Positions 6,448 to 15,622 of a DNA stretch of 64,000 nt are shown here, piece after piece (positions within the stretch are counted from its first letter, which is position 1; the number at the start of each line of letters is the position of its first letter). This DNA is from Leptospirales bacterium (lineage in GTDB: Bacteria; Spirochaetota; Leptospiria; Turneriellales; JAOUFE01). The stretch lies in contig JBEQLE010000004.1 of the NCBI GenBank assembly GCA_040326155.1, positions 11,639-75,638 on the forward strand, given 5' to 3'. Under the pieces are notes generated by a model. The model saw only the letters and a program-made list of their open reading frames with translations, was not told where the DNA came from and did no database searches. A program made the position numbers and the translations under genes.

Positions 6448-7635
6448 ATGAGCTCTTCTAAGAAGAAACCTATGATTTTAATTGTCGATGATACTTCGGC
6501 AAATATTGAAGTGTTAATGGGTATTCTTGGCGGGGGTGAATATAAAATATCCGCAGCGGTGAATGGAAAAGAGGGCATTGAAATGGCCGAAAAACTTCTT
6601 CCCGATCTAATTTTGCTTGATGTTATGATGCCCGTGATGGATGGTTATACGGCGTGTCGTCATCTGAAAAACAGTATAAATACAAAACATATTCCAGTCA
6701 TATTTTTAACCGCTAAAATTCAACCGGAAGATATAACGAAAGGGTTCGAAGCGGGAGCGGTCGACTATATCGTTAAACCGTTTAATGAATCTGAATTGCT
6801 GGCGCGAATTGAAAATCATCTGGAACTAAAGCAAAACAGAGAAGAGCTTAAAGAGGAACGTAACGAGCTAAGAATAATAAATAAAACTATTGAAGAAGAT
6901 TTGAACATGGCAAGAAGTATTCAGGAGATGGCGATGCCTTCGCAGCCTCCCAATGCATCTATCGCATTTCACTACGCTTCCATGGCCCAGGTGGGTGGAG
7001 ATTTTTACACTTTTTTTGAATTGTCGGATGGAAAACTGGGGTTGTTTATCAGTGATGTCTCAGGACATGGAATCGCCGCAGCTTTTATTACTTTGCTGAT
7101 TAAAAACACATTGCAGCATAATCAAAACCATCTTGATGATCCGGAAACATTAATGGGTGCCTTGAATGAAAACTTATACGGTCAAACTGCCGGTAATTTT
7201 TTTACGGCAATTTATGCCATTATAGACTTTAAAAACAGTGAAATAGAATATGTTACTGCCGGGCACAACCAACCCTATATTATTGGAGAAGAAATTGAAG
7301 AGTTAGGTTGCGATCATAAAAGCCTTCCTATGGGAATTGTAAATAATACATATTTAAAAAAGATAAACAAATATTATAAATCTCAAAAATCCTTTCTGAC
7401 AAAAGGGTCTCGACTTTTATTTTATACGGATGGTTTAACAGAAGCCATTCGTCTCAGTGAAAAAGATAACCCGGACGCTCTGGACTTTGAATCTTCAAAT
7501 TTATTAGATACGCTACTTCAAAATCGAAACGAAAGTGCTGAAAAAATTGTTCACAATGTTATGGAAGATTTAAAACAATTTCGAGAGACTGACCATTTTG
7601 ATGATGATGTCTGTATTATCTGCGCAGAGATGTAG
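6448..7635 (+). CDS. Response regulator with SpoIIE/PP2C phosphatase output (RsbU-like)
   Basis: ILIVDD/LLDVMMP receiver; VGGDFY, ISDVSGHG, AGHN, YTDGLTE, DDVC PP2C motifs. Confidence 0.95.
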   Translation: MSSSKKKPMILIVDDTSANIEVLMGILGGGEYKISAAVNGKEGIEMAEKLLPDLILLDVMMPVMDGYTACRHLKNSINTKHIPVIFLTAKIQPEDITKGFEAGAVDYIVKPFNESELLARIENHLELKQNREELKEERNELRIINKTIEEDLNMARSIQEMAMPSQPPNASIAFHYASMAQVGGDFYTFFELSDGKLGLFISDVSGHGIAAAFITLLIKNTLQHNQNHLDDPETLMGALNENLYGQTAGNFFTAIYAIIDFKNSEIEYVTAGHNQPYIIGEEIEELGCDHKSLPMGIVNNTYLKKINKYYKSQKSFLTKGSRLLFYTDGLTEAIRLSEKDNPDALDFESSNLLDTLLQNRNESAEKIVHNVMEDLKQFRETDHFDDDVCIICAEM

Positions 7636-7697
7636 AACTTATATCTTTTTCTATCCTTTTTCTATATACAGGGCAATTCGATTTCAGATGATCTTCC

Positions 7698-8792
7698 ATG
7701 CAGACTGAACCCGACGATTTTACCGATACAAGTGAATATTTTTTTCGCCTTACGCCCGATGTTGTTATGGACGCCGTTGAAGAGGCGGGACTCTACCCTT
7801 CGGGACATTGCCGGGCTTTGAACTCTCTGGAAAACAGAGTTTTCGATATCGGACTCGATGACGGTTCTCATATTGTCGCCAAGTTTTATCGCCCCGGACG
7901 CTGGAACGATAAACAAATTCTCGAAGAGCATAAGTTCTTGGTGGACCTTCGAGATGATGAGGTTCCGGTGTTGTTTCCGCTACCCTTTCCTAATGGCTCT
8001 ACTATTTCACAACGAAAGGGAATTTATTATGCCATATGGCCTTTTTCAGGCGGGCGTGAGCCAGCCGAATTTTCTGACACCGAACTCGAAATTGTAGGAC
8101 GCCTGATTGCCCGCATTCACAATACCGGCGCCGGTTCTGCAGCTCCGGAACGCCCTGCGTTATCTTCTAAACGTATGGGTTTAGAACCCTACAATTTTTT
8201 AGTCGAAAACCGATTTATACCGCCCGAACTTACGAACCGCTATGAATACGCTGTAAAAAAAACAGTAGAAGTCTACGACAAACTTTCTGAAGATATTCCA
8301 ACCCACCGCATTCACGGCGATTGCCATCTTGGGAATCTACTGTTCGGTACTCACGGATGGTATTTTCTCGACTTCGATGATTTTAGTGAGGGGCCCGCAG
8401 TGCAAGACATCTGGCTGATTGTCTCTGAACGCGATGAAGATTCTGATCGTCGTCTTAACATATTCCTGGACGCTTATCGCACTTTTCGAGATTTTGACGA
8501 TAGGTGGTTAATGCTGCTAGAACCCTTACGAACTCTACGGTATATTCATTATACATCATGGATAGCCAGACGGTGGAAAGATCCTTCTTTTCCTGCGGCA
8601 TTTCCCCATTTCGGCGATAACGAGTTTTGGATAAAAGAAGTAAATGACCTGGAACACCAACTGACCCTTTACGCGAAACCAGATGCAAGTCAAATTATTC
8701 TCGAAAATAACCCTTTGTCTAATTCCACGGATGATGCTCCGAAAGAAGAAGAACCGCTAACAAATAAAGATTTCTTCTGGGATATGGAATAA
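7698..8792 (+). CDS. srkA: Stress response Ser/Thr kinase SrkA (RdoA/YihE)
   Basis: ALNSLENRV, KFYRPGRW, RIHGDCHLGN, DFDD, GPAVQDIW, WIARRWKDPSFPAAFP. Confidence 0.92.
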   Translation: MQTEPDDFTDTSEYFFRLTPDVVMDAVEEAGLYPSGHCRALNSLENRVFDIGLDDGSHIVAKFYRPGRWNDKQILEEHKFLVDLRDDEVPVLFPLPFPNGSTISQRKGIYYAIWPFSGGREPAEFSDTELEIVGRLIARIHNTGAGSAAPERPALSSKRMGLEPYNFLVENRFIPPELTNRYEYAVKKTVEVYDKLSEDIPTHRIHGDCHLGNLLFGTHGWYFLDFDDFSEGPAVQDIWLIVSERDEDSDRRLNIFLDAYRTFRDFDDRWLMLLEPLRTLRYIHYTSWIARRWKDPSFPAAFPHFGDNEFWIKEVNDLEHQLTLYAKPDASQIILENNPLSNSTDDAPKEEEPLTNKDFFWDME

Positions 8793-8804
8793 GTTTCGTT
8801 AAAT

Positions 8805-9551
8805 TCAACGAATGTAATTTTCATAATAGTCAACCGCAATATCGGAGTAGTTGTATTGCTCTGAAAAACCCATGGCGCCATTCGGGAAAAAACGTTTGTT
8901 ACGAAACGCCAGTATCGTTTTAAAGTCTGCTTGAAAACCAGCATTGTATGCAGCGGCAAAGAACGCTATTTTCTTTACTGTATTGAACGACGCCAGTTTA
9001 TTCGAAAATTTGTCTTGAACAATATGATAAAAACAAGCCAGATAATACGTCTGCCAGGATGGATTTTCTAAGCGACGAACTCTTTGGCGACGAATCGATT
9101 TTTGCAAGTTCTTTTCAGATTTTGAATACTGTCTTAAAGTTGTGCACTCTTTACGCGGGTGCTTTATAAAATAGCTCTCGATATTTTCTGCAAAGGAGGG
9201 TTTCATTTGAAAATAACCTATGGAAAAATCGGCATAGTCCTCACCATAATTTACATAGAAAATTTTCAGCCCAGTCGTTTCCATTTCATCTTGTATTAAA
9301 GAGTATCGAATAAGCTCAGGAAAAATAACCGGTACTAAGATATCGGGGTCGGCACCATAACCTTTAAGCTGTTGAGCTACTTGAGGTCCATTCTCTTCAA
9401 TAAAAAGTAACGCCGTTTGATAATCCGATCCGAATATTTCTTTATACACGGATTTTGCAAAAAGGCTGCCTGATATAATGCAAAAAACAGCGGCGGTAAA
9501 TAACCATTTTGTAAAATAAATTCGTTTAAACGTCATTATATCTAATCTCAT
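8805..9551 (-). CDS. Secreted hypothetical protein, possible lysozyme-fold/lytic transglycosylase
   Basis: Signal peptide; FPE..., SIGYFQMK and AAYNAG resemble SLT motifs I-III. Confidence 0.55.
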   Translation of the reverse strand: MRLDIMTFKRIYFTKWLFTAAVFCIISGSLFAKSVYKEIFGSDYQTALLFIEENGPQVAQQLKGYGADPDILVPVIFPELIRYSLIQDEMETTGLKIFYVNYGEDYADFSIGYFQMKPSFAENIESYFIKHPRKECTTLRQYSKSEKNLQKSIRRQRVRRLENPSWQTYYLACFYHIVQDKFSNKLASFNTVKKIAFFAAAYNAGFQADFKTILAFRNKRFFPNGAMGFSEQYNYSDIAVDYYENYIR

Positions 9552-9673
9552 ATACTATTACGCCCTTCCAGGGTAAGCCACGTAAAGGTTTTTTCAACTG
9601 GCGAACCACACGTAGATATTGAAAGCGACCATAAAAAACCACTTTTGACTTTATCTACTACGTCATTTAGACA

Positions 9674-10015
9674 ATGTGTCCCATGGTCTATATGACGTTT
9701 GCAGTTACCGGAGCCTGGATTGGGGCCAGCCTGGGAATCATCATACTATTCGTTTTCCCATTTCAAGGAACAGTAAAAGAAAACCTGTGGACCGCCTTAA
9801 TTATTTCACACTCCGCATTAGGTTTAATCTCAGTTTACCTGATCGGCGAATTGTTATTGTTAGTCACCGTTGGTCCAGTCTTACTTTTTATCGGTTTTGC
9901 AAATATTCGCTGGCTCCATTTTTGCCGAACATGCGGACAATCCTATTTTATGGTCGAGTTCCACAAAACATCGTCACAAAAGATTTGCCCGGCATGTAAT
10001 GGCATTATCGGATAA
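9674..10015 (+). CDS. Small membrane protein with C-terminal zinc ribbon
   Basis: Three hydrophobic segments then CRTC...CPAC. Confidence 0.6.
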   Translation: MCPMVYMTFAVTGAWIGASLGIIILFVFPFQGTVKENLWTALIISHSALGLISVYLIGELLLLVTVGPVLLFIGFANIRWLHFCRTCGQSYFMVEFHKTSSQKICPACNGIIG

Positions 10016-10083
10016 ACTCAATTTCGGTTTTATTCAAGATTTTTTTAAAAATACCGATAAGCAGGTATCGGGAGAATTTACTT

Positions 10084-10602
10084 ATGCACAAGTTTTTCAT
10101 TGCTTTTCTTTTTTTAACATCCGCCCATTTTCTATACCCTGAATGTCCTACGCACTATTCAGAAATGACAATGCAAGACCATATTAAACTGTTCCCGATT
10201 AACGAGCATGAGTGGTGGACCAAAGAACAAACTGTCAACGACGGTCGAGTCACACTTGCCATCTCGCCAGTTGACGCATTACCAGACGGAGCGGGAGTAT
10301 CTGCCCTGATAAAATTCTCGGGAAAGTTTCGCGTAATTACCCCCGACGCTTTTATCGCATTAGGTAGTTTCGGCGGCCCCAAGATGAAAGCATTATATTC
10401 ACACGAACTCAGAATTAGCGAACAAGGTTTTGACGGTTGGGTCGCGGTACAATACAATCTGGTGGATAAAATAAAAAAACAAATAAAAAAGGGAGAGAAC
10501 TTCTATGTCTGCATGGTTTTAATCGGTGTTATCAATGACCGACACTTTTATTTAATGAACAATTTTTCCACTGAAAATGACGAAAGCGAAACAAAACAGT
10601 AG
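10084..10602 (+). CDS. Secreted hypothetical protein
   Basis: GGAG RBS, signal peptide, 172 aa. Confidence 0.7.
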   Translation: MHKFFIAFLFLTSAHFLYPECPTHYSEMTMQDHIKLFPINEHEWWTKEQTVNDGRVTLAISPVDALPDGAGVSALIKFSGKFRVITPDAFIALGSFGGPKMKALYSHELRISEQGFDGWVAVQYNLVDKIKKQIKKGENFYVCMVLIGVINDRHFYLMNNFSTENDESETKQ

Positions 10603-10606
10603 ATTT

Positions 10607-11119
10607 CTATTTTTTCCCTTTCTTTTCAAGTTCCGAAAAAACCCACTCCCAGTCACTCACCGGTTTCTCCTCGGAAGCAGACTTCATATAAGAAGGCAGC
10701 GACGACGCCTTTTTTGCCATACTTTTTTTATCCAGATTTAAAATATGATCGACAAGCCACACATTCAAATAGCCAAGCAAATCTTTTACAATCGTATGGT
10801 CCCCTGAGCGAAACTTCTTTTCATAATCACGCAAACCATCTACAAAGGTTCGGTGCGCCATGCGGTGTATTTCCAGATTTGGTTTATCTACCTGTTCAAT
10901 AACCATCTCTTCCGCTTTAAAATGAAATTTAGTATAACTCGCCAGCTGCCCAAAAATCAACGAAATACCGGTCAAATCAACCTTCGTATCAACCGCAGTT
11001 TGCAAACGATTAATAATTCCAATTAAAGTTTTATGTTGAACATCGACTCTATCAATACCGGTCTTCATCTCTTCAGACCATTGAATATTACCTTTACTGT
11101 CCCAGCTATCATCACTCAT
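10607..11119 (-). CDS. Bacteriohemerythrin
   Basis: W..EMKTGI..VD.QHK.L, HFKAEE, H...H, WLVDHI..LD iron-binding pattern. Confidence 0.92.
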   Translation of the reverse strand: MSDDSWDSKGNIQWSEEMKTGIDRVDVQHKTLIGIINRLQTAVDTKVDLTGISLIFGQLASYTKFHFKAEEMVIEQVDKPNLEIHRMAHRTFVDGLRDYEKKFRSGDHTIVKDLLGYLNVWLVDHILNLDKKSMAKKASSLPSYMKSASEEKPVSDWEWVFSELEKKGKK

Positions 11120-11242
11120 ACAATATTATAATTACCCCATCTACTAAGTAATGAATTTGCCTTACTTTGTCTATATGTATTTACATTCAGCAGACAAACA
11201 AAAGATTTTTCCCCGGCAAATCGTAGCAATCAAACGAAGCAA

Positions 11243-11396
11243 AAATAACGTGGTAATTTTATCTGACGCTTTCATGCTGCCAGAGCCAGCCATGGGAGCA
11301 CAAAAACCCTTTAATGTCAATACAATTGTTGCAAAATTTCATTGTGAGGCATGAGGGGCAGCGAAGGCTGGCCTGAACAGATAAAATTTGTTAGGC
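11243..11396 (-). mobile_element. attC-like recombination site closing the toxin-antitoxin cassette
   Basis: On the minus strand GCCTAAC (RYYYAAC) lies 10 nt after the toxin stop, with AATTTTATCTG...CAGATAAAATT and GCCAGCC...GGCTGGC inverted arms, ending in GTTATTT. Confidence 0.65.
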
Positions 11397-11406
11397 GAAA
11401 TAATGG

Positions 11407-11700
11407 TTATAGATATTTCTGAATATCCATAGCGCCGTGGTACACCCCCAAAACAGAGATTATACTTTGCTCCAGTATGTAAGTATACGCTATTTTATAA
11501 TGACCATATAGTATAATTCTAATCTCTTTGGAAGCCTGTGTTTTATATACAAAACCGATATTAGGTTGATTTTCTAATAATTGAACTTTAGCATATATTC
11601 CGTCGATAGTGTCGGAGGCCGCTACAGGATTATTTTCTGCAATATAATCGAAGATAGACTTTAAATTTGCACTGGCTTCATCGGCCCATTCTATTTCCAT
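11407..11700 (-). CDS. Type II toxin, RelE/ParE family
   Basis: IEWADEASANLKSIFDYIAENNPVAA...LENQPNIG...YKIAY...VLGVYHGAMD. Confidence 0.92.
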   Translation of the reverse strand: MEIEWADEASANLKSIFDYIAENNPVAASDTIDGIYAKVQLLENQPNIGFVYKTQASKEIRIILYGHYKIAYTYILEQSIISVLGVYHGAMDIQKYL

Positions 11701-11876
11701 TGCTTATCGATTCTGTTTTTCATTTCTATATTACTTATTGTATTGCCTTCTTCTACATCAAGTAAACCACGTTCTACAATATTCGAAAAGGCTAGTTCTT
11801 TAATAATTTCCTCTGGTGTGCTATCTTCAGGTTGTTCATTAATTATCTCTATGAATTTCTCTTTTACTGCTGACAT
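11691..11876 (-). CDS. Cognate antitoxin
   Basis: 61-aa acidic ORF overlapping the toxin start; EQPEDST.EEII....VERGL.DVEEG.TIS pattern typical of ParE-linked antitoxins. Confidence 0.85.
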   Translation of the reverse strand: MSAVKEKFIEIINEQPEDSTPEEIIKELAFSNIVERGLLDVEEGNTISNIEMKNRIDKQWK

Positions 11877-11882
11877 AAAGAC

Positions 11883-11911
11883 AGTTTATTAAGATATCTT
11901 GACGGGGTCAA
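11883..11911 (-). promoter_or_regulatory. Sigma70 promoter of the TA operon with overlapping palindromes (likely autorepression operator)
   Basis: TTGACC-N17-TAAACT-N6-ATG; TTGAC-CCC-GTCAA and AAGATATCTT palindromes within it. Confidence 0.6.
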
Positions 11912-12244
11912 ATTCATTTTATTTTTCTCCGGTATATCATATCCCGTTGGGAATTATCCGACTAATCGGAATCTGAAGATTAACTCGAATCGAGAAAAGG
12001 TTATCCATTTAAAACTAAATATTCGATAACTGTGAAAACTATAGTTATCCTGGTTTGTTAGGATCAGATTTATCTAAATAAATATTCATCGAATTTCACC
12101 TCTTGAATATTTAAATGTTAAAAAATTATATTTTGGCATGGATAATTCCTCTTTCAGGAGGATATTGAAATCATAGGTATCAATATGAAAAGTCAATTTA
12201 TGATTCTGCAGGCCCGACATCGATGGCAGGCGTTTATTTCGTAT

Positions 12245-12292
12245 TCATATCGCTGTCTTCACCGGCTTATCCGGTGCAATGCTTTGTTATGT
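12245..12292 (-). mobile_element. Short canonical attC site with mutated R' box
   Basis: ACATAAC-AAAGC-ATTGCACC-GGATAAGCC-GGTGAAG-ACAGC-GATATGA = R''-5-L''(extra G)-VTS-L'-5-R' (GTT changed to GAT). Confidence 0.75.
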
Positions 12293-13017
12293 TTTGGTAC
12301 ACCGAAATGTAACTCACGATGACAGTTGGGGCACAGTGCGGTAGCATTTTGAACTGTATCTTCTCCGCCATCAGCCAATCTAACCTTGTGATGCACCTCT
12401 AAATACGGGCTATTATCTTTCTTTCTCGCAAATGGGGCTGATGAATCGCATCTTTCGCATTTCCCACTTGCTCGCTCAAGAATTTCTGCAACGACGTAAG
12501 GATTACGCTCATATACATTCGCTACAATTGCCCTGACTTGTGGAGTTTTATTCGACGTTGAAAGTATTTTTTGTCGCTCTTCTTTTGGAGTTTTCAATGC
12601 TTTTTCGACAGCTTTATCAAAAGATTTATCAAAAGATTTATTCGAATCTTCAAAGCTGACAATGCCTTGTGAAATAGCTAAGTACGAAGAGTGTAAATCT
12701 CGTAAAGACTTCAACGTGACATTGTTCTTCGCTTCATAGTACTCAATATGTTTCCACAAAGCGTTAACCGAATTAAGTAAAGAACTAGAGCTATCTTCGG
12801 TCATGATGCGGGCTAAGTAATAACTCATATCCGACGCACTCAAAGCACGTTTAAATTCAAGCCCATTAATCATTTTTTCGTATACAGCAATCATGATTTT
12901 TGCAGAATTAATATTAACTCCATATTCACGATTTAGCTGTTAAGCGCCTTCAGTTGGGTTTAACTCGCCATCAAAAACCTTTTTTGCAGTAGTGTAGACT
13001 GCTTCAATGTTCGACAT
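12259..13017 (-). pseudogene. HNH endonuclease (McrA-like) gene cassette with an in-frame nonsense codon
   Basis: AGGAG RBS then ATG at 13017; MSNIEAVYTTAKKVFDGELNPTEGA*QLNREYG... continues in frame into the 211-aa ORF; TAA at 12940-12942; CERC...YLEVHH...GGEDT..N..ALCPNCHRELH. Confidence 0.85.
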
Positions 13018-13127
13018 TCAGTTTGCTCCTACAAAAAACATAACATCGTAATATATAGCTTTTCGTATATTAAGGAATAACTAATGATATACAGAATTTT
13101 TATATAATCCGATTTAAAGTATATGCT

Positions 13128-13277
13128 TTAATTTTTGCACCCATTCTTATCACAAGTAATTTTTTGTGATGATGAAACCCAATGGTCAGGGTGTTTTCTT
13201 GTGTCAACGCCACATCCAGTACGACCACCTTTAGTTCCTTTATGTATCTCACCTGTCGGTGTATGCTTTACGGCCAT
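13128..13277 (-). CDS. 49-aa Cys/His-rich small protein (below the ORF-track cutoff)
   Basis: AGGGA RBS; MAVKHTPTGEIHKGTKGGRTGCGVDTRKHPDHWVSSSQKITCDKNGCKN; upstream TTGACA promoter. Confidence 0.75.
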   Translation of the reverse strand: MAVKHTPTGEIHKGTKGGRTGCGVDTRKHPDHWVSSSQKITCDKNGCKN

Positions 13278-13558
13278 ATTTAATCCCTTTAAAATAGATA
13301 TACGGAAAGATGTATATTGATCTTAAAATGTCAATACTAATCTTTGTCTTGCGAGCACACGATGTGCGGCGTCAGAATAATATGGCCGCCATTTCCCCCT
13401 AACACTATACACCTGATCTAACCCGACCATACTTGTGCGGTAATGTTGCAGGTGCCATTGTATTACATGAAAAACGAAAACTTACATTTATTCCGGCGAA
13501 AGCCGAAAAAACTGCTATTGTATGAAAACTTCAAAGAAAAGCCATCTCCCGTAAAATA

Positions 13559-13633
13559 CGTAGGGGGTAGCAGGATAAGTTTTTGCTTTGCCAAAAACTT
13601 ATCCTGCTAGGGAAACTTCCACCACCCTTCCTT
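13559..13633 (+). repeat. Structured intergenic repeat, family 3 (GGGGGT-stem-GGG..CCCTTCC), copy 1
   Basis: Perfect 18-bp inverted repeat 13568-13585/13592-13609; ends shared with the copies at 39489 and 50825. Confidence 0.6.
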
Positions 13634-13706
13634 TTTCATTTGAGAAAAAAGACACGCGAAGCATTGAACATACTTGACAATAAGATGGATATATGTAAAC
13701 AGAGTA

Positions 13707-14072
13707 ATGGCTACCATATTGCTGGTTGATGATATATCATTTATAAAGCGAATTGAAAAAAAAGTTCTGGAAGAGAACGGGCATAGCATAGTTGGCGACG
13801 CCTCTGATGGAGAACAGGCGATAGAGCTTTTTGAAAAGACCAGACCTGATATCGTTTTAATGGATATTACTATGCCAAAAGTGGACGGAATTGTAGCGCT
13901 TGAAGCAATACTGGAAAAGCACCCGGAAGCAAAAATTATTATGTGTTCAGCTCTGTCTCACAAGCATGTTCTTTTTAAAGCTGTAAAAGCGGGAGCTAAA
14001 GATTATCTGGTGAAGCCCTACACAATGGAAAGGCTGCTGGAAACCATTTCAAGAGTATTGAAACACCCTTAA
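13707..14072 (+). CDS. cheY: Chemotaxis response regulator CheY
   Basis: Single receiver domain: ILLVDD, MDITMP, MCSA, GAKDYLVKP; ATG at 13707. Confidence 0.85.
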   Translation: MATILLVDDISFIKRIEKKVLEENGHSIVGDASDGEQAIELFEKTRPDIVLMDITMPKVDGIVALEAILEKHPEAKIIMCSALSHKHVLFKAVKAGAKDYLVKPYTMERLLETISRVLKHP

Positions 14073-14086
14073 CGCAGTAAATTAGC

Positions 14087-15622
14087 ATGCATCTCTCCAT
14101 CTATCCACAGAAAAAATATACATCTCGTCTATATTCCCGCGCTCTCTATTTTCTGACTTTATTCCTGGTTTGTTTATGGACCGGTTCCTCTTTAAGCGCC
14201 CAAAGCCCCCCGCTCGAAAAGAAGCACCCGGAAGGGTTAAAATTAAAATATAAAGCAAATTATGAGATTGTGGTTTTTCCCACCATCTACCGACTCAATC
14301 GTAAAAACATTTACCTGAAAAATATTTACGAAGGGGTCGTCGTTGACCGACTGCGACTACTGTCCAAAGGGTATGTTAAAAAACCGACTCCGGTTGAATT
14401 TTTCTACCCCGTCGAAGGTGTTGAAACCGGAGGAGAGATACTCGAAAACCCCCGGCAATATATTCTGGAAAACTTTATTTCACAAAGCGCATACTTTCCT
14501 ATGAAAATAGTTCGCGCCGACAACCTGCCTGCGGAAATCACCTCTGCTGAATATTTTTTCAGTAATTACAACGCGTTGCGTTCACTCGATTCCGAAACAT
14601 TTTACCTGTTTTTAACGCTCGAACCCGCCGAACAAACCACACTCGATGCCGGTGTGTATTTTTACCGAGGGAATAAGCTATTATATCACACTATAAAAAC
14701 CATTGTCACTGAAAACCTTCACGTTGAAATATCCCTCTTAACCTCTGGCGTTCGAAAATGGATGGCTGGGCCTCAATCTGGTAACCTTTCTGTTCAAACA
14801 ATTAAGGAGGGAGCCTCCGTTTATATCGATAAAATCTTTTCAGGCAAAACCCCGCTTTTTATGCAGCACCTGCCGGCCGGCCCACACGAAATCGATGTCT
14901 ATAAAACCGGCCATAAACCGTGGAAAGAAAAAGTAACCATCGAACCCGGCAAAACAAAATCAATAACAGGCAAACTCGTCGAAAAATGGAGCGAGGGTGT
15001 CCTGCGAATAAGCTCAAACCCACCCGAAGCTGACGTATATGTCGATCTCGAATACCGGGGGAAAACCCCAATAGATGTTTCCGGCCTTGAAACTGGGAAT
15101 CACAGAATTCAATTGGTAAAAGAAGGGTTTATCGACAATTATAAAATGGTGAAAATTTCTTACGTTCAAAAACGACGTGAAATAAAATTATTACTAAAAC
15201 CCGGCAATTCTGAAAAACATTTTGAAACGAACCCTGCCGTACTTGGCAAAATAACAAACCAGGGTTTCTTTAAAGGTTTTACAATTGGAGCGGGAGGGTT
15301 TGCCATTACCGGTTTATATTTTTTAATGCAGGCGGAAAACTTTCAAACAAACATAGCATCCATAAAAAAGAACTCTGGCTCCAATTTGAGCGCGCATGAA
15401 CAAAAAAAAATAAAAAACCTGAACACTAAAATTACCAATTATACCGGATATTACACCGGCTCGTTTATTACCTCCGGAGTATCGATCGGAATTGCAACTT
15501 ATTTCTTTATTAAATATTTATCTTCTTATAACCCAAAAATAGTATCGAACCCGAAGTTAGGTTTTTTTGCTTCGGTAGATTTAAATGGCGGTTTTTCAGG
15601 TAAGTTCGTCTATCGCTGGTAA
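14087..15622 (+). CDS. PEGA domain-containing exported/membrane protein
   Basis: Signal peptide; two PEGA repeats (GASVYID...GKTPL...G.H.I.V.K.G; SNPPEADVYVD..YRGKTP); C-terminal TM helices. Confidence 0.85.
   Translation: MHLSIYPQKKYTSRLYSRALYFLTLFLVCLWTGSSLSAQSPPLEKKHPEGLKLKYKANYEIVVFPTIYRLNRKNIYLKNIYEGVVVDRLRLLSKGYVKKPTPVEFFYPVEGVETGGEILENPRQYILENFISQSAYFPMKIVRADNLPAEITSAEYFFSNYNALRSLDSETFYLFLTLEPAEQTTLDAGVYFYRGNKLLYHTIKTIVTENLHVEISLLTSGVRKWMAGPQSGNLSVQTIKEGASVYIDKIFSGKTPLFMQHLPAGPHEIDVYKTGHKPWKEKVTIEPGKTKSITGKLVEKWSEGVLRISSNPPEADVYVDLEYRGKTPIDVSGLETGNHRIQLVKEGFIDNYKMVKISYVQKRREIKLLLKPGNSEKHFETNPAVLGKITNQGFFKGFTIGAGGFAITGLYFLMQAENFQTNIASIKKNSGSNLSAHEQKKIKNLNTKITNYTGYYTGSFITSGVSIGIATYFFIKYLSSYNPKIVSNPKLGFFASVDLNGGFSGKFVYRW

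Follow-up and report, generated by a model that had tools for sequence, protein, structure and literature searches.

A CALIN-type block of integron-type cassettes in a Leptospirales genome, with an IntI-like tyrosine recombinase as its likely enzyme

The VCR arrays of Vibrio are sedentary chromosomal integrons with species-specific attC repeats, and complementarity between the start of a cassette and the core of its attC site was historically used to place the integron crossover at G/TT. Away from such arrays, clusters of attC sites without an integron integrase have been described as CALIN (PMC4889954), and a preprint reports SALIN elements, single attC sites that likewise have no integrase, together with cassette insertion at genomic attG sites of consensus GWT (10.1101/2022.09.11.507474). 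According to the former source, an additional domain in contact with the folded attC site is what defines integron integrases and guides the search for them, and surveys discard recombinases that lack it even beside attC sites (PMC4889954). Here we describe a block of about 2.2 kb in a 64,000-nucleotide stretch of DNA (hereafter the window; positions 11,639 to 75,638 of contig JBEQLE010000004.1, assembly GCA_040326155.1) from a Leptospirales bacterium. The block (13403-11243, all features read on the minus strand) consists of three units of the mobile gene cassette type, set into the divergent intergenic region between two housekeeping genes, hemerythrin and cheY. Because its two attC sites lie close together (848 nt apart, from 12245 to 11396) and no integrase is encoded nearby on the contig, the block files as a CALIN-type cluster, a classification that we judged by hand. 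The system behind it works like an integron.

Four genes occupy the 2.55-kb gap between the CheY-like receiver gene and the hemerythrin gene. The inserted block starts at the left junction GTTAGGG (13397-13403), where the crossover would fall between G13403 and T13402. Unit 1 (13402 to about 13042) comprises a leader and the first part of a repeated module, which we call the P-module, with a conserved TTGACA (13296-13396; model positions 1-75 at 13367-13296), a gene for a 49-aa conserved small protein (13128-13277) and a second partial P-module (13042-13115; model positions 45-117) that ends in GTT at 13044-13042. Unit 2 opens with the cassette start GTTATGTTTT (13035-13044), an exact 10/10 reverse complement of 12295-12286, and holds a pseudogene of 252 codons for an McrA-like HNH endonuclease (12259-13017; PF01844 at 6.5e-11) and a degenerate 48-bp attC of a widespread short type (12245-12292). 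Unit 3 runs from a leader-like module (12160-12251) through about 280 nt to a putative antitoxin of 61 aa (11691-11876), a ParE/RelE-family toxin of 97 aa (11407-11700; PF05016 at 1.8e-14, 54.5 bits against a cut-off of 23) and a 154-bp attC of the host-lineage type (11243-11396). The leader-like module resembles the leader consensus and matches C89:5042-5116 at 83%, a weaker assignment than the others. The antitoxin is named by position alone: its end overlaps the ParE start by 10 nt, it has no Pfam or NCBIfam match, and its nearest proteins are unnamed and 60-61 aa long. The 49-aa gene is real: it has 72 homologues (E <= 0.001) at 65-94% identity that are mostly exactly 49 aa long; the named ones are in Bacteroidota, and a Pfam scan of the protein gave no match.

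The first-pass annotation of the window, made from its letters alone, had listed the motifs GTTATGT (13044-13038), ACATAAC (12292-12286), GCCTAAC...GTTATTT (11396-11243) and GTTAGGG (13403-13397), all of which are present. Its description of three co-oriented minus-strand units with complementary core sites at their ends is borne out, with the complementarity of the HNH unit extending to 10 nt, and the Pfam assignments of ParE and HNH agree with its view that a toxin-antitoxin pair and a nuclease are cargo typical of cassettes. It had also reported no intI in the window, and there is indeed no PF00589 match on the whole 91.8-kb contig; the four PF00589 matches of the window's genome (G000) lie on contigs C12, C83, C106 and C141.

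To characterize the 154-bp site, the region was compared with its own genome. BLAST showed that 11242-11425 is repeated on many contigs, and an iterated nhmmer search identified 91 matches on 54 contigs. In 22 full-length copies, RYYYAAC is joined directly to AAATTTT, often followed by one extra base and then by ATCTG; a variable centre with indels leads to CAGATAAAATT, a spacer of about 5 nt, and GTT with variable bases. Sequence conservation does not extend beyond RYYYAAC at the 5' end or GTT at the 3' end; across the family, these two ends read NNNYAAC and GTT[AG]NNN. The window copy shows the same layout, with R'' at 11396-11390, L'' at 11389-11378, L' at 11265-11255, a 5-nt spacer at 11254-11250 and R' (GTTATTT) at 11249-11243; its 11-bp inverted arms span 11388-11378 and 11265-11255, and the right crossover would lie between G11249 and T11248. 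Against the attC consensus RYYYAAC/GTTRRRY, GCCTAAC fits the 5' core, and GTTATTT fits GTT but not RRRY. This copy is a short variant without part of the family centre and without the bulged base seen in many copies.

The terminal arms of the window copy pair in the centroid structure of both strands, and the terminal arm duplex is found in 27/27 long sites compared (15 from the host genome, 8 from G012 and 4 from G018), mostly with an L box of 9-12 bp and weakest on C157 and C29; an R box forms where the cores pair. The unpaired spacer is asymmetric, with 0-2 nt on the 5' arm versus 3-5 nt on the 3' arm, which differs from the textbook layout. Compensatory changes preserve the L-box stem (ATCTG/CAGAT, ACCTG/CAGGT, ACGAG/CTCGT and ACAAG/CTTGT). 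Many members exceed 200 nt and the family reaches about 300 bp; members longer than 200 nt may fall outside the default attC length limits of IntegronFinder. Neighbouring sites less than 5 kb apart are mostly co-oriented (17 versus 5 opposed).

This long-site family is specific to the host genome among the genomes searched, since its 5'-arm motif (at most 1 mismatch) occurs 42 times there, against 1 for the reversed control, and only 0-6 times in each of 60 relatives. The exact 3'-arm pattern gave one unrelated match in wider genome contigs, in Floricoccus. From these comparisons we assign the 154-bp site to the host lineage's own attC type. Relatives of ParE in metagenomes (11 loci, 32-53% identity) had no match to the long-site or P-module models in the 230 nt downstream of 9 of these loci; two of the metagenome loci (L146 and L150) carry a canonical-looking attC-like sequence downstream.

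A second repeat is the conserved cassette leader. Leader homology among 13 copies, the window's included, starts exactly at GTT whatever lies upstream, so that at the left junction the 12 other copies begin to align precisely at the GTT while their upstream flanks are unrelated. The leader runs into the P-module, which is 117 nt long, carries TTGACA and has 20 genome-wide matches (nhmmer, model from host-genome copies). At the 3' end, homology stops right after GTT in 7/12 copies whose match reaches model position 100 or beyond, and diverse genes follow. The 49-aa gene of unit 1 sits within a duplicated leader module, with P-module positions 1-75 before it and 45-117 after it. The module is possibly a promoter, judging from its TTGACA; a sigma-70 scan of it found 10 candidates against 10.3 expected, no enrichment, and a terminator scan found none.

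The HNH unit has a different origin. GTTATGT (13044-13038) lies 21 nt before the ATG at 13017, and ACATAAC (12292-12286) lies inside the end of the HNH frame. Translation places an in-frame TAA at 12942-12940, codon 26, and the gene is broken, because homologues align across this codon. The homologues are 66-86% identical and 240-253 aa long, and the named ones are mostly from Gammaproteobacteria. A Shewanella homologue is part of a classical cassette: GTTAGGT precedes the gene, and the attC that follows it opens with ACCTAAC. Relative to homologues, the window frame also carries a tandem duplication of five residues (KSFDK twice, at 12600-12640).

The 48-bp site at the end of this unit consists of R'' (ACATAAC, 12292-12286), a 6-bp stem (12276-12271 with 12265-12260) and a degenerate R' (GATATGA, 12251-12245). 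Against the consensus, ACATAAC is a near fit and GATATGA is without GTT; on folding, the hairpin alone forms. For these reasons (no GTT within 48 nt, hairpin-only fold) the site was at one point set aside as not real, a judgement overturned by 13 matching sites elsewhere. These were found with a 29-letter pattern taken from the window's site, so that the first 29 letters are fixed by the query and the remaining columns are independent. The 13 sites come from genomes of very different phyla and can be aligned gaplessly across all 48 columns; ten of them end in GTTA. Over the first 35 columns, the window copy matches the majority at 29/31 non-R'' positions, 27 of which are fixed by the pattern and not independent; in the conserved last 12 positions it has 4 substitutions, including GTT to GAT. 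On this alignment, the short attC is real. It is also imported: the type is unique within the host genome, and the named relatives of the HNH protein are mostly gammaproteobacterial. The cassette itself is decaying, with its in-frame TAA and the GAT in place of GTT.

These results refine three earlier proposals. Two attC styles are present, as had been noted; the long style is the host lineage's own and the short one imported. The 48-bp site, first called well formed, belongs to a widespread short attC type but has GAT instead of GTT as its 3' core. The HNH unit has complementary core sites at its ends, but its gene is a pseudogene.

Complementarity across cassette junctions provided a further line of evidence. 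For each 3' GTT, a script took the 10 bases from there onward and compared them with the 10 bases up to and including the next 5' AAC, reverse-complemented. In G012, a complete genome of the same order, junctions are perfect (10/10) in 11/11 cases, the attI-like site included, while pairs within the same site agree at just 4-9 of 10 bases. In G018, from the same genus as G012, three of five junctions are perfect, one reaches 9/10 and one 6/10. Among adjacent co-oriented sites of the host genome, 4/13 junctions match at all 4 variable bases, versus 4.8% of random pairs and 1/27 same-site pairs. When a GTT-anchored partner was sought within 5 kb upstream of the 5' core, 14/49 sites had one at >=9/10, whereas 200 permutations yielded 5.0 on average and never more than 11; on C7, C112 and C138, the partner corresponds to the opening 10 bases of the conserved leader.

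Within the window, the 10-nt complementarity of the HNH unit is unlikely to arise by chance: an exact reverse-complement 10-mer lies 300-1500 nt downstream at 0.3% of 73,743 GTT positions, and the chance rate is about 0.3-0.5%. Among nine P-module ends tested, only that of the HNH unit has an exact 10/10 downstream partner. The left junction GTTAGGG is complementary to R'' of the 154-bp attC at 6/7 positions (8/10 when extended, ungapped). The left end of the block is thus the best pairing partner for the 5' core of this site, and the block may therefore have entered as one cassette and been added to later.

Other arrangements of long sites were seen on C106. In the stretch 6923-12335, three co-oriented long sites separate ORFs of 587 aa and 264 aa. 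An ORF of 450 aa is flanked by an inverted site pair whose 5' cores differ at 1/10 bases, and the same arrangement occurs on C135 with identical cores.

Tyrosine recombinases were examined in the host genome and its relatives. Contig C12 encodes an intact recombinase of 352 aa. An attI-like GTT, where a leader begins, lies 154 nt upstream of the start codon of this gene and 100 nt short of the contig end. Orthologues scoring >=172 bits and 36-46% identical are present in 19/30 relatives, several with their 5' end near a contig end. In three relatives, the recombinase gene points away from an attI-like site with which a cassette array begins. The G012 orthologue is divergent from an attI-like site ending in GTT; beyond this site come eleven sites of about 225 nt, separated by small ORFs that are mostly co-oriented. 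G018 has the same attI-like sequence, together with recombinase and array. In G001, from the same family as the host genome, the order is recombinase, attI-like GTT, TTGACA leader, two ORFs and a long site, after which the contig ends; the 5' core of this long site complements the cassette start at 10/11 positions. Because of the IntI-like recombinase on C12 and the orthologues that flank arrays in G001, G012 and G018, the host genome is not integrase-less. The initial label of an integrase-less CALIN therefore needs qualification: the CALIN label fits and no integrase lies near the block, but the genome encodes an IntI-like recombinase. A PF00589 search of the genome finds this protein, whose TIGR02249 score is below the cut-off.

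Several further features were noted around these recombinases. A second recombinase on C106, near the three-site array, was considered as the integrase and rejected: it is Xer-like, with 299-307 aa, and its gene sits downstream of the array's 3' end, convergent with the array. Just beyond the C12 attI-like site is an element of about 44 nt with two direct copies of a 12-nt word (C12 9490-9561); it recurs on four other contigs (C1 23-91, C82, C137 and C150), with a half copy on C99, and could be a pair of binding sites or another repeat. Within the G012 array (L029 1379-2001), two small overlapping ORFs (130 and 77 aa) look like a toxin-antitoxin pair, judged from their N-termini. In G009 (L032 12325-13511), repeats with a period of 600 nt run from about 1.8 kb beyond the orthologue start to the contig end, with a second tyrosine recombinase gene between.

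The C12 recombinase matches PF00589 with 150.4 bits, and its catalytic residues R209, K234, H302, R305, H328 and Y337 are invariant in 48 sequences. Among NCBIfam models it scores 206 bits against a cut-off of 220 for NF040815 (XerA/'integron integrase'), 183.6 against 335.15 for XerC and 181.8 against 265 for TIGR02249 (IntI), thus remaining below the IntI threshold; the TIGR02249 match comes in two pieces and skips model positions 185-237. In the predicted structure (pLDDT 90), no helix lies between residues 255 and 279, and four extra helices occupy the first 62 residues, part of an extra N-terminal helical region of about 60-80 aa. The best solved-structure match of the model is VchIntIA (2a3v; E 4.5e-15, TM 0.63/0.70), with which the protein also shares a C-terminal tail ending in ...SPL. 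TIGR02249 at E <= 1e-40 had no match in 61 genomes; control genomes also gave none at that threshold, so this is no proof of absence.

Public labels for relatives of the recombinase read just 'tyrosine-type recombinase' or 'XerD', in Spirochaetota and Leptospiraceae genomes. A recombinase profile scan of wider genome contigs returned mostly recombinases of candidate phyla and others, with no named spirochaete among the matches listed. Also among the matches listed were Patescibacteria recombinases (L050-L059) of about 270-280 aa, 38-49% identical over the catalytic and core-binding parts, many of them less than 1 kb from a contig end.

We therefore read the locus as a block of integron-type cassettes of CALIN type, with the C12-type IntI-like recombinase as the likely enzyme, and put the probability of this reading at about 0.72. 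Under this proposal, a tyrosine recombinase, most likely the 352-aa IntI-like protein on C12, would bind attC folded as a single strand, with the R and L boxes paired and the asymmetric spacer unpaired. Strand exchange would take place at G/TT with attI or with a secondary genomic G/TT site, and this would insert a circular cassette that begins with bases able to pair with the 5' core of its own attC. Once in place, the putative toxin-antitoxin pair would stabilise the block. The G/TT borders of the block fit the GWT consensus reported for genomic insertion (10.1101/2022.09.11.507474).

A number of observations weigh against this reading. At the protein level, the IntI insertion, reported to be essential for integron function, is missing: 25 aa stand opposite 66 aa of VchIntIA, about 40 residues short. 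The complete genome G021 has an orthologue but no repeats nearby. Among the long sites, only about 27/91 matches carry both ends and many are half copies, as expected of decaying or MITE-like repeats, and of 69 host-genome sites, 26 have a co-oriented ORF beside the 5' core, 33 a reversed one and 10 none, unlike classical arrays. Four of the 14 partner matches in the host genome are the two inverted site pairs on C106 and C135, not cassette starts. Within the block, the 48-bp site ends in GATATGA, and the start of the toxin-antitoxin unit fails to pair with its own 154-bp attC, the left end of the block pairing instead. The 49-aa unit, proposed earlier as a cassette, does have the GTTAGGG border, but it has no attC of its own and lies inside the duplicated leader module. 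In the folding check proposed in the first-pass annotation, the terminal arms pair, and the whole site folds only weakly better than shuffles (z -1.2 for the top and -1.7 for the bottom strand). Finally, the host genome stands alone in its genus, and among relatives only cheY was matched at the DNA level; a look for sequencing runs that cover 10700-14000 listed none.

Three other explanations were weighed against the cassette reading. The block could be a fragment of the main cassette array that was moved by rearrangement or by homologous recombination between repeats, instead of being inserted by a recombinase at a secondary site. Leader and attC modules share short segments, the 5' half of attC is fused to a P-module on C91 and C166, the P-module is duplicated around the 49-aa gene, and the assembly is broken at these repeats, with 27/91 long-site matches within 1 kb of a contig end, all of which such a history would accommodate. 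Both outer borders, however, fall exactly at G/TT, the left one pairs with R'' of the terminal attC, and the flanks are ordinary chromosomal genes with cheY-side synteny kept in relatives; we consider an array fragment unlikely, and insertion at a secondary site would explain these borders better.

Less probable still is that the long repeats are MITE- or REP-like elements spread by a transposase, with a convergent likeness to attC and gene units that are not mobile cassettes. The 91 dispersed and often partial matches on 54 contigs would suit such elements, as would the inverted repeats at the ends of the sites, the roughly half of neighbouring ORFs that are reversed, the two ORFs flanked by inverted site pairs (C106, C135) and the absence of the family from 60 relatives. 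What MITEs would not be expected to show is inverted complementarity, in place of a direct duplication, between the 3' core of one site and the next 5' core 0.8-2.2 kb off; nor do they account for the mostly co-oriented neighbouring sites (17 versus 5) or for homologous sites that form arrays by a recombinase and an attI-like site in three relatives. A prophage or genomic-island remnant with core motifs that match by chance seems the most remote of the three. Phages and islands often carry HNH and ParE genes, and 7-mers like ACATAAC are common, with 452 copies in the host genome; against this, the contig has no phage or integrase genes near the block, each of the two attC sites is a member of a defined family, chance would give the 10-nt complementarity at a rate of only about 0.3-0.5%, and leader homology begins right at the left border.

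The flanking genes, both outside the element, encode a hemerythrin (10607-11119, minus strand; PF01814 at 3e-13) and a CheY-like receiver (13674-14072, plus strand; PF00072 at 2.5e-28). Synteny to the right of cheY is kept in G001 and G002, where the hemerythrin side differs and no empty site was seen. An Rfam scan of 10000-15000 at E <= 10 gave two chance-level matches only; Rfam contains no attC family. Upstream of cheY, a strong palindrome at 13525-13609 represents a third repeat family, with partial copies on at least seven other contigs (C11, C22, C99, C117, C131, C145 and C160).

Beyond the block itself, we regard the odds as about even that an integron class so far unrecognised exists in this spirochaete order, in the family of the host genome and in one or more others. 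The integrase of this class would resemble IntI in fold and tail, but in place of the domain regarded as essential it would have extra N-terminal helices, its attC sites would be 150-300 nt long with the spacer on the opposite arm, and its cassettes, often reversed and with their own leader (possibly a promoter), would have spread to dozens of loci in the host genome, here beside a classical cassette. The genome table of the 2016 survey gives no element for Turneriella parva, a named spirochaete that it places in Leptospiraceae (PMC4889954). In the literature, we found no integron reported for Turneriella and none of relevance for Leptonema; among the papers listed, none dealt with integrons and attC sites in Leptospirales, and none described an integron-like system of this kind, which is no proof that it is unpublished.

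If a recombinase without that domain makes these arrays, integron integrases are defined too narrowly, and current tools would then miss integrons in whole lineages. The system would also amount to a natural experiment on the recognition of single-stranded attC with a different site layout. Moreover, one chromosome can come to hold a classical cassette next to a lineage-specific one, which bears on how cassettes cross between phyla.

Comparison with described systems places the locus close to, yet apart from, known integrons. Like CALIN and SALIN elements, the block has attC-bounded cassettes far from an integrase, flanked by ordinary genes and bordered at G/TT; it differs in its 154-bp attC (from a family reaching about 300 bp), the asymmetric spacer, the TTGACA leader and a candidate integrase that is not a canonical IntI. 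The short site aligns gaplessly with the widespread 48-bp attC type of Shewanella, Alteromonas, Zhongshania, Rheinheimera and others, from which it differs by the 4 substitutions.

With regard to the enzyme, the C12 recombinase resembles VchIntIA (2a3v) as its best structural match, in the ...SPL tail, in the catalytic residues and in the adjoining attI-like site and array, and differs by the missing IntI insertion, the TIGR02249 score below cut-off and the extra N-terminal helical region. The XerA/Xer-like model NF040815 is its best NCBIfam match and has a catalytic domain of the same length; the C12-type protein is distinguished from it by the below-cut-off score, by linkage to cassette arrays rather than to a dif-type site and by the N-terminal extension. 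Sedentary chromosomal integrons such as the VCR arrays of Vibrio share the homogeneous lineage-specific attC sites, the arrays by a divergent integrase and attI, the (here putative) toxin-antitoxin cassettes and the complementarity between cassette start and 5' core, whereas here the integrase is without the IntI insertion, attC sites measure 150-300 nt, the cassettes of the host genome are scattered over at least 54 contigs and about half of the ORFs are reversed. Since the enzyme is without the IntI insertion and scores below the IntI cut-off, and since the sites differ in length and spacer layout, the system is set apart as a variant among integrons.

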